Part shown: positions 6,676 through 11,632 of the stretch, one piece after another
How the letters are laid out: every line of letters begins with the position of its first letter
Position numbering within the stretch: the first letter of the stretch is position 1
Source of the DNA: Wenzhouxiangellaceae bacterium
GTDB taxonomy: Bacteria; Pseudomonadota; Gammaproteobacteria; Xanthomonadales; Wenzhouxiangellaceae
NCBI GenBank assembly: GCA_965222675.1
Contig: OZ244963.1
Location: forward strand, 990,617-1,054,616
DNA: 64,000 nucleotides
Direction: 5' to 3'
Translations under genes and position numbers: made by a program
The notes under the pieces: generated by a model
What the model was told of the DNA's origin: nothing
The model's database searches: none
The model's input: only the letters and a program-made list of their open reading frames with translations

Positions 6676-7809
6676 ATGGCCAGACTGACCGTTTCAAGCC
6701 GGTTCGACAGCGGCAACATCGACGTGGTGGCGGCGGACGAGCCGAGCGATATCCGCCTGCGCATCCGCCGCGACGTCGGCGACCGCCACGCCCAGTGGTT
6801 CCACTTCCAGCTGTGCAACGCGCGGGACCGTGCGTGTCGGATGACGATCGAGAACGCCGGCGAGATGTCCTATCCGTCCGGCTTCGAGGACTACCGGGCG
6901 GTGGCGTCCGTCGACGGCGAGACCTGGTTCCGGGTGCCGACCTCCTTCGACGGCACGCACCTGGTGATCGAGCACACGCCCGATGCGGACCAGGTGTCCT
7001 ATGCCTACTTCGCGCCGTACAGCTTCGAGCGCCACCAGTGGCTGGTCGCAACGGCGAGCGACGCACCGAACGTTCGCAGCGAGGTGCTCTGCGCAACCCC
7101 CGACGGCCGGCCGCTGACCCTGCTGACCGTCGGCGAACCCGGGGAGGACAGGGTCCCGGTCTGGATCACCGCGCGCCAGCATCCGGGCGAGACCATGGCC
7201 GAGTGGTGGATCGAGGGCTTCCTCGAGCGCCTGCTCGATCCCGAGGACGGTGCATCGCGCGCGCTGCTCGAGCGGGCGGTGATCTACGTGGTGCCGAACA
7301 TGAACCCGGACGGCAGCGTTCGCGGACACCTGCGCGTCAACGCATGCGGCGTGAACCTGAACCGCGCCTGGCGCGATCCGGACGAGACCGAATCGCCGGA
7401 GGTCTTCCACGTGCGCGCCAGGATGCACGAGACCGGAGTCGCCTTCGCCCTCGACGTCCACGGCGACGAGGGCCTGCCCTACAACTTCATCGCCGGCGGC
7501 GAAGGCGTGCCGCGCTGGGATGATGCAATGCAGTCCGACCTCGATGCGTTCAAGACGCTTCTGGCCGATCTGTCGCCGGACTTCCAGGTCGAGCACGGCT
7601 ACGACGTCGACCCGCCGGGCAGCGCGGACCTGCGCAAGTGCACCGACTACATCGCCGAGACCTTCGGTTGTCTGGCCATGACCCTGGAAATGCCGTTCAA
7701 GGACGCGGCCAACCACCCGATGCCCGAGATCGGCTGGTCGCCGGGCCGCTCGGCCAAGTTGGGTGCGATCTTCGTGGATGCGATCCGGATGACGCTGGCG
7801 CGGAGTTGA
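6676..7809 (+). CDS. M14-family zinc carboxypeptidase-like protein (cytosolic carboxypeptidase type)
   Basis: 377-aa ORF. N-terminal SRFDSGNI domain, zinc-ligand motif ARQHPGET, VPNMNPDG, and a later LDVHGDE motif. Confidence 0.75.
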   Translation: MARLTVSSRFDSGNIDVVAADEPSDIRLRIRRDVGDRHAQWFHFQLCNARDRACRMTIENAGEMSYPSGFEDYRAVASVDGETWFRVPTSFDGTHLVIEHTPDADQVSYAYFAPYSFERHQWLVATASDAPNVRSEVLCATPDGRPLTLLTVGEPGEDRVPVWITARQHPGETMAEWWIEGFLERLLDPEDGASRALLERAVIYVVPNMNPDGSVRGHLRVNACGVNLNRAWRDPDETESPEVFHVRARMHETGVAFALDVHGDEGLPYNFIAGGEGVPRWDDAMQSDLDAFKTLLADLSPDFQVEHGYDVDPPGSADLRKCTDYIAETFGCLAMTLEMPFKDAANHPMPEIGWSPGRSAKLGAIFVDAIRMTLARS

Positions 7810-7920
7810 GCCGGCGACCGGCGGGTCGGTACGCGGGCCAGGCATTGTCCGCTCGCTGGCGGGCAGGTTGTTCTTCTGCGCATCTGCCGCGCGGGTTGCG
7901 GGTTACGGGTCGGAGTTGTT

Positions 7921-10745
7921 CGAAAGGCGTTTTCGCCACGCGGGCTTCTCCCGCAAGCGCGTAGCGCGGGGCGAAAGGCCTTTGGGGGTTTGTTTTTCGA
8001 CTCCTAAAGCAAGATCAAGAGCGTTTCGCCACGCGGGCTTCGCCCGCTTGCTGGCGAGGTACTTTTGTCAATCGCGACAAAAGTACCCAAAAGCGCTTCT
8101 ACAAGCTGTGCGAACGGAGCGGGGTTGCCCTTCAGGCCGGGGCGCGGCGCAGAAAATCGCTTATCGCGCTGAGACACGAGAAGCTTGTCACGCGCCAGCT
8201 TTCGGCTACCGGATGAGGGCTCGGAGCCCGCGCGGCCCGGTGGGCGATTCGTTGTGATGTGCTGCCGGGCCGGAGCGGATATCGTTCCGCGGCCACCGTC
8301 GGTAGCCTGGAGGTTGCGCTCGACAGCTTCTCCTGAGTCGAGGTCGATCACCGATTCTTGGCGCCGGGACTTTGGCCGAGAAACTCGTCCCTCGATACGC
8401 CCAGCTTCTAGAAAGCGCTTTTGCCTTCTTTTGTCGCGATTGACAAAAGAAGGTCGCCCGCAAGCGCGCAGCGCGGGGCGAAAGGCTTTTCGGGGTTGGG
8501 TTTGGTTCTCGATTTCGAAGCAAGAACAAAAGCGTTTCGCCACGCGGGCTTCGCCCGCTTGCTGGCGAGGTACTTTTGTCAATCGCCTCAAAAGTACCCA
8601 AAAGCGCTTTTCAAAGCGGTGCGAATTGGGCGGGGTTGCCCGTCAGGCCGCGCTGCGGCGCAGAAAATCGCTTATCGCGCTGAGACACGAGAAGCTTGTC
8701 ACGCGCCAGCTTTCGGCTACCGGGTGGGGGATCGGAGGACTACCGGCCTGGGGACGCGACCTTCGAGGTCACTGCCGGGCCGGAGCGGATGTCGTTCCGC
8801 GGCCACCGTCGGTAGCCTGGAGGTTGCGCTTTACAGCTTCTCCTGAGTCGAGGTCGATCACCGATTCTTGGCGCCGCGGCATCGGCCGAGAAACTCGCCC
8901 CTCGATACGCCCCGCTTGTAGAAAGCGCTTTTGCCTTCTTTTGTCGCGATTGACAAAAGAAGGTCGCCCGCAAGCGCGTAGCGCGGTGCGAAAGGCTTTT
9001 GGGGGTTGGGTTTGGTTCTCGATTTCGAAGCAAGAACAAAAGCATTTCGCCACGCGGGCTTTGCCCGCTTGCTGGCGAGGTACTTTTGACAGTCGCCTCA
9101 AAAGTACCCAAAAGCGCTTCTACAAGCGGTGCGAACGGGGCGGGGTTACTCGTGAGACGCGGGCGCGGCGCAGAAAATCGCTTAGCGCGCTGAGACACGA
9201 GAAGCTTGTCACGCGCCAGCTTTCCGCTACCCGGGGTCACTGCGGCGGGCCGCGTCGCCAAACTCCATCCCGTCGCCCCGGCCCCCGAGCCGGGGCCCAG
9301 CGACTTTACGGGCTTCGATCAACGTCGCTGGATCCCGGATCGAGTCCGGGACGACAGAAAAGCCAGGGTCCGGCAACGCAAGAACAAAGGCGTTTCGCCA
9401 CGCGGGCTTCGCCCGCTTTCTGGCGAGGTACTTTTGACAGTCGCCTCAAAAGTACCCAAAAGCGCTTTTGAAAGCGGTGCGAATTGGGCGGGGTTGCTCG
9501 TGAGGCACAGGCGTGGCGCAATGACTCGCTTATCGCGCTGAGACACGAGAAGCTTGTCACGCGCCAGCTTTCGGCTACCGGATGAGGGCTCGGAGCCCGC
9601 GCGGCCCGGTGGGCGATTCGTTGTGATGTGCTGCCGGGCCGGAGCGGACGCGAATCCGCAGCCACCGTGGGTAGCCTGGAGGTTGCGCTTGACAGCTTCT
9701 CCTGAGTCGAGGTCGACCACCGATTCTTGGCGCCACGGCTTTAGCCGAGAAACTCGCCCCTCGATACGCCCCGCTTGTAAAGAGCGCTTTTGCCTTCTTT
9801 TGTCGCGATTGACAAAAGAAGGTCGCCCGCAAGCGCGTAGCGCGGGGCGAAAGGCCTTTGGGGTTTGTTTTTCGAATCCAAAGCAAGAACAAAGGCGTTT
9901 CGCCACGCGGGCTTCGCCCGCTTGCTGGCGAGGTACTTTTGACAGTCGCCTCAAAAGTACCCAAAAGCGCTTCTACAAGCGGTGCGAACGGGGCGGGGTT
10001 GCTCGTGAGACGCGGGCGCGGCGCAGAAAATCGCTTATCGCGCTGAGACACGAGAAGCTTGTCACGCGCCAGCTTTCCGCTACCCGGGTAGCGATCGAAG
10101 ACGATCTGCCCCGGTGGGCAACCGCTCGGGACGCAAGTGCTTCCTGTCGTCGACCATCGACCGGATCCCGCCGTGGGTAACCCTCGAGGTTGCGCTTTAC
10201 AGCTTCTCCTGAGTCGGGGTCGACCACCGATTCTTGGCGCCACGGCCTTAGCCGAGAAACTCGGCCTCGATACGCCCCGCTTGTAAGAAGCGCTTTTGCC
10301 TTCTTTTGTCGCGATTGACAAAAGAAGGTCGCCCGCAAGCGCGTAGCGCGGGGCGAAAGGCTTTTCGGGGTTGGGTTTGGTTCTCGATTTCGAAGCAAGA
10401 ACAAAGGCGTTTCGCCACGCGGGCTTCGCCCGCTTGCTGGCGAGGTACTTTTGACAGTCGCCTCAAAAGTACCCAAAAGCGCTTCTACAAGCGGTGCGAA
10501 CGGGGCGGGGTTGCTCGTGAGATGCGGGCGTGGCGCAATGACTCGCTTAGCGCGCCGAGACACGAGAAGCTTGTCACGCGCCAGCTTTCCGCTACCCGGG
10601 GTCACTGCGGCGGGCCGCGTCGCCAAACTCCATCCCGTCGCCCCGGCCCCCGAGCCGGGGCCCAGCGACTTTACCGGCTTCGATCAACGTCGCTGGAACC
10701 CGGATCGAGTCCGGGACGAAAGAAAAGCCAGGATCCGGCAACGCT
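7921..10745. repeat. Non-coding array of ~190-bp units in alternating orientation (period ~510 bp), six forward copies and four-plus inverted copies
   Basis: Forward unit (gcgtttcgccacgcggg...gagacacgagaagcttgtcacgcgccagctttcggctacc) at 8021-8210, 8532-8721, 9042-9231, 9390-9579, 9895-10084 and 10407-10596. Inverted relative (ggtagcctggaggttgcgct...cgcccgcaagcgcg.agcgcggggcgaaaggc) at 8301-8486, 8811-8996, 9670-9855 and 10176-10361, plus a fragment at 7921-7980. ORFs occur in all frames on both strands with junk composition. Confidence 0.9.
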
Positions 10746-10837
10746 TTTGATTCCGACCCGGAAAAGCGCCCGGTGAGTCGCGCAGGAATGCAAGAACAGC
10801 AACCGCCCGACCGGACGTCGGCGGGAGCCGAACAGGC

Positions 10838-11632
10838 TCAGTCTGCCGACTCCTCGGCGTCATCGCGCCGATCCCCATCGCGGACGACCATTTTCGAGAA
10901 CACGATGCCGAGCTCGTACAAGGCCCAGACCGGAATCGCCAGCAGCGTCTGGGAGATCACGTCCGGTGGGGTGATCAGCATGGCGACGAAGAACACGCCG
11001 ACGACGACGTAGCCGCGGGCCTTCGCCAGGCCCGCGGGCGTGACCACGCCGATCGCGACCAGGACCACGGTGACCACCGGCACCTCGAAGGCGAAGCCGA
11101 AGGCCAGGAACAGCACCATGACGAAGTCGAGGTAGCGGGTGATGTCGGTCATCACCGCGACGCCGTCGGGGGCGATTTTGGTGATGAACGCGAAGATCAG
11201 CGGCAGGACCAGGAAGTAGGCGAACAGGCAGCCGAGGTAGAACAGCGCCGTGGCCGCGAACAGCAGCGGGCGCGCCAGCTTCTTTTCGTGCTGGTACAGG
11301 CCGGGCGCGACGAAGGCCCAGAGCTGGTAGATGACGTAGGGCATGGCCAGGAGAAGGGCCAGGACCATGACCAGCTTGAACGGCGCGAAGATCGGCGAGG
11401 CGACGTCGATCGCGATCATGCTCGAGCCTTCGGGCAGGCGCGAGACCAGCGGCTCGGACACGATCGAATACAGCGTGCGGGCGAACGGCACCATGGCCAG
11501 CATGCAAAGCACGACCGCAAGGACCGCGCGGATCAGGCGCGTGCGCAGCTCGAGCAGGTGGTCGATCAGGCTGAGCTCCTGATCGACGGCCGAATCGATA
11601 CCCGATTCAGTCGGACCGGTCGGCGTCGTCAT
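10838..11632 (-). CDS. tatC: Twin-arginine translocase subunit TatC
   Basis: Multi-TM protein (LIDHLLELRTRLIRAVLAVV...) with the typical TatC N-terminus, last gene of a tatA-tatB-tatC order. Start chosen at the internal Met (MTTPTGP...) rather than the Arg-rich upstream extension to 11734. Confidence 0.85.
   Translation of the reverse strand: MTTPTGPTESGIDSAVDQELSLIDHLLELRTRLIRAVLAVVLCMLAMVPFARTLYSIVSEPLVSRLPEGSSMIAIDVASPIFAPFKLVMVLALLLAMPYVIYQLWAFVAPGLYQHEKKLARPLLFAATALFYLGCLFAYFLVLPLIFAFITKIAPDGVAVMTDITRYLDFVMVLFLAFGFAFEVPVVTVVLVAIGVVTPAGLAKARGYVVVGVFFVAMLITPPDVISQTLLAIPVWALYELGIVFSKMVVRDGDRRDDAEESAD

Follow-up and report, generated by a model that had tools for sequence, protein, structure and literature searches.

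A repeat array of alternating inverted units between two convergent genes

We analyzed a 64,000-nt stretch of contig OZ244963.1 from the Wenzhouxiangellaceae bacterium assembly GCA_965222675.1 (positions 990,617 to 1,054,616; hereafter the window), in which a 2.8-kb array of palindromic repeats fills the gap between a carboxypeptidase gene and tatC. A BLASTN search of the window with the first forward unit as the query recovers six forward units of ∼191 nt on the plus strand: A1 (8021-8211), A2 (8532-8722; 93% identical to A1), A3 (9042-9231; 91% to A1 and 97% to A5), A4 (9390-9580; 88% to A1), A5 (9895-10084; 93% to A1), and A6 (10407-10596; 89% to A1), with identities to A1 spanning 88 to 93% and E-values from 1e-66 to 1e-98. 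Their start-to-start spacings are 511, 510, 348, 505, and 512 nt, and a repeat finder gives a period of ∼510 bp. Four inverted units of ∼187 nt lie between them on the minus strand, B1 (8301-8487), B2 (8811-8997; 94% to B1), B3 (9670-9855; 94% to B1), and B4 (10182-10362; 91% to B1), with a mutual identity of 91 to 94%. B is an inverted, diverged paralogue of A: in local BLASTN alignment A matches the reverse complement of B at ∼72% over ∼195 nt, and in a global alignment the identity is ∼56%.

The unit order is A sp1 B sp2 A sp1 B sp2 and so on, so that both orientation and linkers alternate, as in bacterial interspersed mosaic elements (BIMEs). The center sp1 between the inner ends of the arms is a hypervariable slot that occurs in at least three versions within the window. 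Type a (8212-8300, between A1 and B1) is 92% identical to 9581-9668, matches 8772-8810 with its 3' half alone, and is unrelated to type b (10085-10181), a center type also present in copies from the related assembly CBDDGP01, where it is 73 to 74% identical to the centers of all three units of locus L116 (comparison loci are given L-numbers throughout) and, by eye, visibly similar to that of the single L016 copy. The spacer sp2 (8488-8531), between the outer ends of B1 and A2, is a weak palindrome made by outward extensions of both arms; it recurs at 98 to 100% identity at 8998-9041 and 10363-10405 and at 85% at 9861-9893.

After A3 and A6, the center and B are replaced by a third unit, C, present as C1 (9233-9389) and C2 (10598-10744, the right edge of the array), which are 97% identical. 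The array can therefore be described as two copies of a 1369-bp super-repeat, [A B A B A C]. The two halves are 89% identical overall, and identities between individual units form a mosaic (0.97 for A3-A5, 0.95 for A3-A6, and 0.97 for C1-C2, versus 0.89 for the halves). C is an imperfect GC-rich palindrome of ∼125 nt that folds to -91.2 kcal/mol (z -3.3), and no relative of it was found in any fetched locus. It contains a T-arm-like stretch, CCCGGATCGAGTCCGGG, which we do not consider a tRNA remnant because ARAGORN finds no tRNA or transfer-messenger RNA in the window. At the left edge, 7923-7979 holds ∼55 nt in which the beginning of an A unit (GCGTTTTCGCCACGCGGGCTTC) runs directly into the last part of a B unit (CCCGCAAGCGCGTAGCGCGGGGCGAAAGGCC): A1 positions 4-27 match 7931-7954 and B1 positions 154-186 match 7947-7979 by BLASTN. 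This looks like an internally deleted unit.

The array is non-coding and contains no credible gene. Its open reading frames (ORFs) have a third-position GC content of 0.59 to 0.61, versus 0.89 to 0.90 in the flanking genes, and a 428-aa ORF has only a sub-threshold Pfam match, with no domain over threshold. A scan of 7000-11500 against Rfam (E ≤ 1) gave no match in the array. Tandem Repeats Finder gave no report for the array because the period exceeds its limit. Repeats of ∼190 nt that alternate in orientation, with "spacers" that are themselves repeated, do not make a clustered regularly interspaced short palindromic repeat (CRISPR) locus, in which direct repeats of 23 to 50 nt enclose unique spacers of about equal length. 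The region is not an insertion sequence (IS) either. In all of this, the present data bear out the initial annotation, which had placed the array, without a credible ORF, between the carboxypeptidase gene (+) and tatC (-), as Pfam now confirms, and had read it as alternating-orientation units with two kinds of center, being neither CRISPR nor IS. Its forward starts and spacings are reproduced exactly by BLASTN and the repeat finder, as are three of its four inverted copies (8301, 8811, and 9670), whereas the last of these starts at 10182 and not at 10176.

Evidence for conserved local hairpins

Each arm carries two hairpins, H1 and H2, and a short tail at its outer end. In A1 this core module (8021-8097) consists of H1 (8027-8056), H2 (8058-8087), and the tail CAAAAGCGCT (8088-8097), and in B1 it consists of the tail AGCGCTTTTG (8414-8423), H2 (8424-8453; CCTTCTTTTGTC-GCGATT-GACAAAAGAAGG), and H1 (8455-8480). 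When the six A units are aligned with the reverse complements of the four B units, invariant blocks alternate with blocks that are systematically type specific. H2 reads GGTACTTTTGTC-AATCGC-GACAAAAGTACC in A and, in the A orientation, CCTTCTTTTGTC-AATCGC-GACAAAAGAAGG in B, with stem changes that are compensated within the arm (GGTAC..GTACC in A versus CCTTC..GAAGG in B). The outer stem of H1 is likewise compensated within the arm (CGCCA..TGGCG in A versus CGCCC..GGGCG in B). These same changes put mismatches into the pairing of A with B. Compensation within arms and mismatch between them therefore argue that selection keeps the local hairpins and not a fold-back of ∼200 nt.

For 37 arms from the window and a related assembly, RNAalifold places 23 of 33 predicted pairs in H1 and H2, which also contain seven of the nine pairs with a compensatory change. 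The remaining helices are short, and in one of them two pairs also covary between A and B. In an alignment of 33 diverse H2 copies, three of which are Psychromonas sequences of the published TwoAYGGAY seed, 95.2% of cells are standard pairs and 9 of 12 pairs have changes on both sides. None of 500 shuffles reaches the observed values, and slid partners are 37 to 61% paired. The stem sequence varies, but the loop (ARTCGC when read as in A) and the tail do not, a pattern that argues for a folded single strand and not for a duplex protein-binding palindrome. Among the non-Watson-Crick cells, G.U falls 16 times on the strand that reads outward from the center and 8 times on the other, and a U.G pair recurs in 11 of the 33 copies from several taxa. 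This bias offers a modest hint as to which strand may matter.

As a single strand, A1-B1 folds as one long imperfect hairpin of -144.7 kcal/mol, compared to a shuffle mean of -107.2 (z -7.35). The giant A:B fold-back would thus be physically possible, yet selection does not preserve it, and the A and B arms are old inverted paralogues. Two further structures were considered for the module and set aside. A closing stem around H1 and H2 is predicted in the window copy and was dropped, not being conserved in Pseudomonas; as for an intrinsic terminator at H1/H3, there are only weak stems of 5 to 8 pairs, with no U-run after H1 in Pseudomonas or Psychromonas.

Dispersal of the unit and of its end module

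The core pattern TTTTGN4TCGCN2CAAAAGN4CAAAAGCGC has 10 matches in the window (6 on the plus strand and 4 on the minus strand), every one within the array, where shuffles expect 0.00. The same pattern occurs in at least 107 stretches of one-genome-per-species contigs and in 88 metagenome stretches. Among the matches listed are Wenzhouxiangella sediminis, strains XN79A and EGI_FJ10409, metagenome-assembled genomes of Wenzhouxiangellaceae and Lysobacterales, Pseudomonas spp., Atopomonas hussainii, a Halomonas-labelled assembly, and Burkholderiales assemblies. Many of the matches in Wenzhouxiangella sp. XN79A are contigs of 200 to 500 bp, the expected mark of a repeat at which short-read assemblies break. 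The core pattern has no match in IMG/VR, and neither a window unit nor a Pseudomonas arm has a BLASTN match in PLSDB. Core sequence strings were not found in published text, and of the Wenzhouxiangella papers listed as mentioning repeats none has this repeat as its subject.

Full-length A arms in CBDDGP01 are 82 to 88% identical to A1, and each has a B partner at a distance of ∼467 bp. Copies are spread over 10 or more loci; L016, L063 (twice), and L090 hold single units, and L049, L054, L071, and L084/L087 hold clusters with 45 to 76 nt between units. We take the multiplying unit to be [A-center-B] of ∼467 bp, or ∼510 bp with its outer extensions. The identity of A arms is 0.91 within the window, 0.89 between CBDDGP01 loci, and 0.84 between the two genomes; for B arms the corresponding values are 0.92, 0.88, and 0.78. 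In CBDDGP01, pairs from different loci are as alike as pairs from the same cluster. Copies are thus more alike within than between genomes, which favors spread or homogenization of the unit after the split of the lineages over a static ancestral array.

The arrangement of the arms varies with lineage, from direct tandem arrays with a period of ∼309 bp in XN79A to a head-to-head pair in Pseudomonas sp. GV071 and, among the metagenome copies, a majority of (+,-) pairs with spans that peak near 800 bp. Common to all lineages are the outer 45 to 78 nt alone, that is, H1, H2, and CAAAAGCGC. In elements from several orders, this module is 77 to 97% identical to the window copy over 35 to 80 nt, and the taxa sharing it are Pseudomonas, Atopomonas, Psychromonas, Halomonas, and Burkholderiales.

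Relation to TwoAYGGAY RNA

In the Pseudomonas relatives, a permissive Rfam scan finds a match to TwoAYGGAY (RF01731) in each arm, reading outward from the center. The best score is 42.5 bits (the gathering score is 43), and the others reach 33 to 40 bits; one metagenome copy scores 39.9 bits. These relatives, together with that from Atopomonas, are palindromic pairs of 550 to 590 bp (L055 4720-5270, L050 1343-1932, L014 5866-6413, and L006 4700-5176). The near-threshold arms belong to the three Pseudomonas loci, and by eye the Atopomonas locus L006 shows hairpins with GGA loops. On the outward strand of six Pseudomonas arms, the GGA:TCC counts are 10:0, 10:1, 7:1, 7:0, 7:1, and 5:2. Such a bias is consistent with the published suggestion that TwoAYGGAY, an RNA still called unexplored in the literature, binds CsrA (PMC4333381), and the Pseudomonas pairs look like divergent RNAs of the CsrA/RsmA-sponge type.

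The supplementary seed alignment of TwoAYGGAY (Weinberg et al. 2010, PMC2864571) supplies a further connection, as its Psychromonas ingrahamii copies run 3' into ...CUUUUGG-[GUUACUUUUCUCUUG..CAAGAGAAAAGUAAC]-[CGCCGUCAAGGGCGG]. In this extension one recognizes the H2-H1 module, directly 3' of TwoAYGGAY and on the same strand. TwoAYGGAY itself is built of two hairpins whose terminal loops read AYGGAY, with P1 as the closing helix. None of the ten window arms contains an AYGGAY motif, GGA bias is absent from them (0 to 2 vs 0 to 2), and they have no Rfam match. The window array is therefore not a TwoAYGGAY member, and the flanking module is all that it shares with the TwoAYGGAY loci.

The center as a passenger slot

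Single low-GC ORFs, with no transposase, are enclosed by the arms in assemblies of Burkholderiales and in metagenome contigs (L095 1060-2430, L098 1440-2700, L061 43-1460, L023 465-1772, L204 90-1567, L136 109-1428, L191 1395-2722, and L182 560-1702). The passengers include a CAP12/Pycsar-type TIR protein (E of 6e-30), a Gp49/helix-turn-helix toxin-antitoxin pair with a DUF4279 protein, and four uncharacterized ORFs (161 aa in L098, 249 aa in L136, 197 aa in L182, and 254 aa in both L061 and L191), one of which has a sub-threshold HepT-like match only. A 370-aa passenger, which by eye we take to be perhaps DUF4062-like at its N terminus, was also seen. A DUF4160/DUF2442 gene pair comes after the A arm in Pseudomonas sp. 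GV071. The window units carry neither the TwoAYGGAY motif nor passenger defense genes.

The surroundings of some of these elements merit description. In GV071, a C4 antisense RNA (71.8 bits; L014 5552-5741) with an a1/b1 target motif lies just left of the palindromic element, and the DUF4160/DUF2442 pair lies to its right, an arrangement that suggests a position at the margin of a phage-derived islet. Burkholderiales elements are nested between the halves of an unrelated inverted repeat (e.g., CCCTCTCCCCTCGCGGGAGAGGGCTAGGGTGAGGGGG; L095 960-1030 and 2450-2510, L098 1375-1410 and 2735-2780), as if they had been inserted into the center of a resident palindrome.

Search for a parent element and for traces of mobility

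To find a parent element, we clustered the ORFs within 2.5 kb of the modules in 107 loci. Only two mobile-element proteins recur, namely, IS481-family and ISCR2-like IS91 transposases, and we rejected both as parents. The IS481-family element, which encodes a 391-aa DDE transposase, interrupts the B arm at one and the same position (after CAAAAGCGCTCTTC) in four CBDDGP01 loci with different outer flanks (L005 1871-3330, L054 3200-4585, L071 3206-4665, and L087 536-1995). Either the IS targets this site or an IS-carrying unit was itself copied. By reading, the insertion point is the loop of a small hairpin.

As for IS91, the module lies ∼150 bp upstream of the L003 transposase, which has an ISCR-like oriIS, and is merely adjacent to it; the four loci with the closest IS91 homologues (84%, 84%, 87%, and 88%) have only ∼45 nt in common upstream of the transposase gene, without a module. 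Contig JAWLFD010000076.1 (L003 1436-3400 and L060 631-1840) holds one full and one 5'-truncated copy of this ISCR2/ISVsa3-like element, with a 499-aa Y2 transposase (66% to ISVsa3) and the oriIS-like sequence GGGGTTTATACTTCCTATAAGCC, each copy within ∼170 bp of a module.

No REP-associated tyrosine transposase (RAYT, a Y1 HUH enzyme) turned up among the recurrent proteins beside the modules in the fetched loci, although a single-copy RAYT gene could lie elsewhere in a genome. No target-site duplication is visible at single copies, and no solo spacers, which would represent empty attachment sites, occur in the fetched loci. At one site, where CBDDGP01 has a unit upstream of gcvT (L063, 732 nt), GCA_019800895.1 has 47 unrelated nt, and a second CBDDGP01 unit sits where GCA_019800895.1 has two extra genes.

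Comparison with known repeat families

In architecture the array is closest to REPIN/BIME clusters, and in behavior it is closest to miniature inverted-repeat transposable elements (MITEs) and mobile insertion cassettes (MICs); it departs from each in defining features. With repetitive extragenic palindromic (REP) sequences and their REPIN and BIME assemblies, it shares non-coding intergenic palindromes, alternation of two unit types and two linkers, dispersed as well as clustered copies, and a maintained hairpin. REP and BIME palindromes often lie between convergent genes and are known IS targets, and here an IS481-family insertion occupies the same B-arm spot in four loci. The units differ from REPs in their size (187 to 191 nt with several hairpins, compared to about 35 nt and a usual range of 20 to 40 nt), in having no conserved tetranucleotide head of the GTAG type, in a center that can carry genes, and in a module that spans orders, whereas REPs are usually species specific.

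Like MITEs and MICs, the elements are small, non-autonomous, and multi-copy, have inverted ends, and show presence/absence polymorphism, and some variants carry passenger genes without a transposase. The A and B arms form the inverted ends of a non-coding unit of ∼467 bp. These ends are 190 to 260 nt long and only ∼70% alike, no target-site duplication is seen, no parent IS has matching ends, and solo arms and direct arrays also occur, all of which set the elements apart from MITEs and MICs. Among the options offered in the initial annotation, a tandemly amplified MITE-like palindrome comes closest, and the unit is indeed a common element dispersed in related genomes; an ordinary MITE, with terminal inverted repeats, target-site duplication, and an identifiable parent IS, is not what was found.

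The likeness to TwoAYGGAY loci lies in the multi-copy state and in the position of H2-H1 directly 3' of the core in Psychromonas, Pseudomonas, and Atopomonas, and the difference lies in the window units, which lack the two AYGGAY loops, and in the module, which is outside the conserved core of the Rfam family. ERIC, Correia/NEMIS, and RIME are also large imperfect intergenic palindromes built of sub-palindromes, 100 to 150 nt or more in size and often co-transcribed with neighboring genes. They show no sequence similarity to the present units, which are larger and form long alternating arrays with a variable cargo slot.

Large intergenic palindromic repeats are known genome filler, and the array is ordinary in that sense. 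Three aspects go beyond this: a covarying double hairpin is common to several orders of Gamma- and Betaproteobacteria; TwoAYGGAY, without explanation since 2010, sits inside palindromic multi-copy elements in Gammaproteobacteria, with a strong GGA strand bias; and arm-bracketed defense and toxin-antitoxin genes point to a vehicle for small genes other than an integron, transposon, or prophage. In practical terms, such repeats break short-read assemblies and yield spurious long ORFs in high-GC genomes.

Interpretation and alternatives

We consider it probable that the array represents a cluster, amplified locally, of a REPIN/BIME-like mosaic repeat that is dispersed, non-coding, non-autonomous, and quasi-palindromic. 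The unit multiplying in this lineage would be [A arm - variable center - B arm], and the functional part of each arm would be its outer end, with H1, H2, and the tail CAAAAGCGC. Judging from the covariation, the H1-H2 module would work as a folded single strand and would be the handle for copying, processing, or stabilizing the element. At this site, the array would have grown and been reshuffled by unequal crossing-over and gene conversion between units, and new units may also have inserted beside old ones. The center between the arms would be a slot that tolerates replacement and that has taken up passenger genes in other lineages. We infer that the element is mobile rather than only recombining and that the hairpin module is a recognition site. 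That the module acts as a folded single strand is the best-supported functional statement that the sequences allow. As to the nature of this strand, we lean slightly toward RNA, or transcribed DNA, read outward from the center, because of the Pseudomonas and Psychromonas relatives and the G.U bias of H2.

Several results weigh against this reading. Within the window, which is all that was examined of this genome, BLASTN and the core pattern place the copies at a single locus only. In the RNAalifold analysis of 37 arms, the inner 110 nt of the arms have no well-supported consensus structure, and the array contains no promoter-like sites, its terminator-like matches being just weak stems of 5 to 8 pairs. 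No transposase is bounded by arms in the about 200 fetched loci. The one comparison of a filled with an empty site is not a clean insertion and has no target-site duplication. Finally, single units have the inter-unit spacer (∼60 nt) on both sides as direct-repeat flanks, so that decay of a tandem array or site-specific integration would fit as well as transposition.

A different possibility, which we regard as unlikely, is that the arms are small-RNA genes giving outward transcripts of ∼190 nt, with H2-H1 as a 3' domain for stability, processing, or protein binding; the array would then be a multi-copy cluster related to TwoAYGGAY-type RNAs, which is compatible with mobility at the DNA level. 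The outward near-threshold TwoAYGGAY matches in Pseudomonas and Atopomonas arms, the Psychromonas module directly 3' of TwoAYGGAY on the same strand, the GGA strand bias of most Pseudomonas arms, and the G.U excess (16 versus 8) with its recurrent U.G pair all speak for such transcripts. The window arms, for their part, have neither Rfam match, AYGGAY loops, nor GGA bias, and the lack of promoter-like sites, the weak terminator-like stems, and the scarcity of conserved structure in the inner arm do not favor small-RNA genes; the absence of the array from the same gap in a 97%-identical relative makes a conserved regulatory RNA locus unlikely. We think it very unlikely that the units are mobilized by site-specific recombination like the cassettes of integrons or the pdif modules of Acinetobacter, with H2 as the recombinase core site and arrays arising by repeated integration of circles at a resident site. 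H2 does have two 11-bp arms around a 6-bp center, the 11-6-11 geometry of Xer-type sites, and the ∼60-nt spacers flanking single units are what Campbell-type integration leaves. Both pdif modules and integron cassettes carry small toxin-antitoxin or defense genes, and the orientation of pdif sites alternates; alternating sites and small passengers of this sort are found here as well. However, the arms of H2 covary freely and yet stay complementary, which argues for base pairing and not for sequence-specific recognition of a duplex. Solo spacers are missing from the fetched loci, no recombinase gene recurs near the elements in the 107 loci, inspection of the units reveals no attC-like R''/R' core sites (RYYYAAC ... 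GTTRRRY), and the alternating orientation is unlike that of integron arrays, where each cassette has one attC site and all of them point the same way.

The initial annotation had proposed that each forward/inverted pair could form a hairpin with arms approaching 200 nt, and the long A:B fold-back might itself be functional as a cruciform, a recombination hotspot, or a source of double-stranded RNA. The folding energy of A1-B1 is in its favor, but the arms are only 56 to 72% alike, their differences are compensated within arms and mismatched between them, A and B have diverged separately between genomes (0.84 and 0.78), with no concerted change within a unit that would keep its arms pairing, and solo arms and direct arm arrays exist (in XN79A and as the A-C units of the window); as a meaningful structure, we hold this fold-back to be highly improbable. 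We attach still less credence to an assembly artifact made of mis-joined or over-expanded repeats. Short-read assemblies of a relative do break at these repeats, but the units of the window differ by 3 to 13% and have three centers, which makes them distinguishable, and a 1.5-Mb contig of a related metagenome-assembled genome has a like array in the same gap. Going beyond the mosaic repeat proposed above, the H2-H1 double hairpin might be the common handle of a previously unrecognized, order-spanning class of modular mobile elements in Proteobacteria, an extension that we find rather doubtful. Its folded strand could be recognized by an HUH-type nuclease or, at the 3' end of an outward transcript, by a reverse transcriptase, with a partner dependence like that of short interspersed nuclear elements. 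The body would be interchangeable, being a TwoAYGGAY RNA rich in GGA (perhaps a CsrA/RsmA sponge) in Pseudomonas and Psychromonas, a structured body in Wenzhouxiangellaceae, and single defense or toxin-antitoxin genes in Burkholderiales. If this were true, the orphan TwoAYGGAY would be explained as mobile-element cargo, and small defense genes would have a new vehicle.

Flanking genes and the gap in relatives

On the left, the array is flanked by the gene for an M14 cytosolic-type carboxypeptidase (6676-7809, plus strand; Pfam PF18027 and PF00246), which served as the synteny anchor, and on the right by tatC (10838-11623, minus strand; PF00902), whose start was set by analogy with 261-aa orthologues (gene calls in L112, L115, and L116). 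The flanks converge on the array, with the carboxypeptidase gene on the plus strand and tatC/tatB on the minus strand. No exact-sequence records exist for the TatC and the carboxypeptidase of the window, and orthologues were reached via homology search. Those of the carboxypeptidase are 97% identical in TARA scaffolds and 93% identical in GCA_019800895.1 and CBDDGP01, with full synteny.

The REP-type repeat that the initial annotation mentions near 55.2 kb of the window does not match the A, B, or C units. The carboxypeptidase/tatC gap measures 3028 bp in the window organism and 3081 bp in CBDDGP01, where it holds three [A-center b-B] units, one interrupted by the IS481 element. In three relatives that are closer or equally close, the gap is shorter, at 723 bp in the 97% relatives and 505 bp in GCA_019800895.1, with no A/B unit and with one or two copies of an unrelated repeat. 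Comparison of these gaps suggests that this is a general landing or retention site for repeats. The repeat in the gap of the closest relatives contains GACCGCAGATGGACGCAGATGAACGCGGATTGAAG... and has an inverted end; two copies are present at L112 9160-9790, with L114 having the same gap, and one copy is present at L115 9160-9570.

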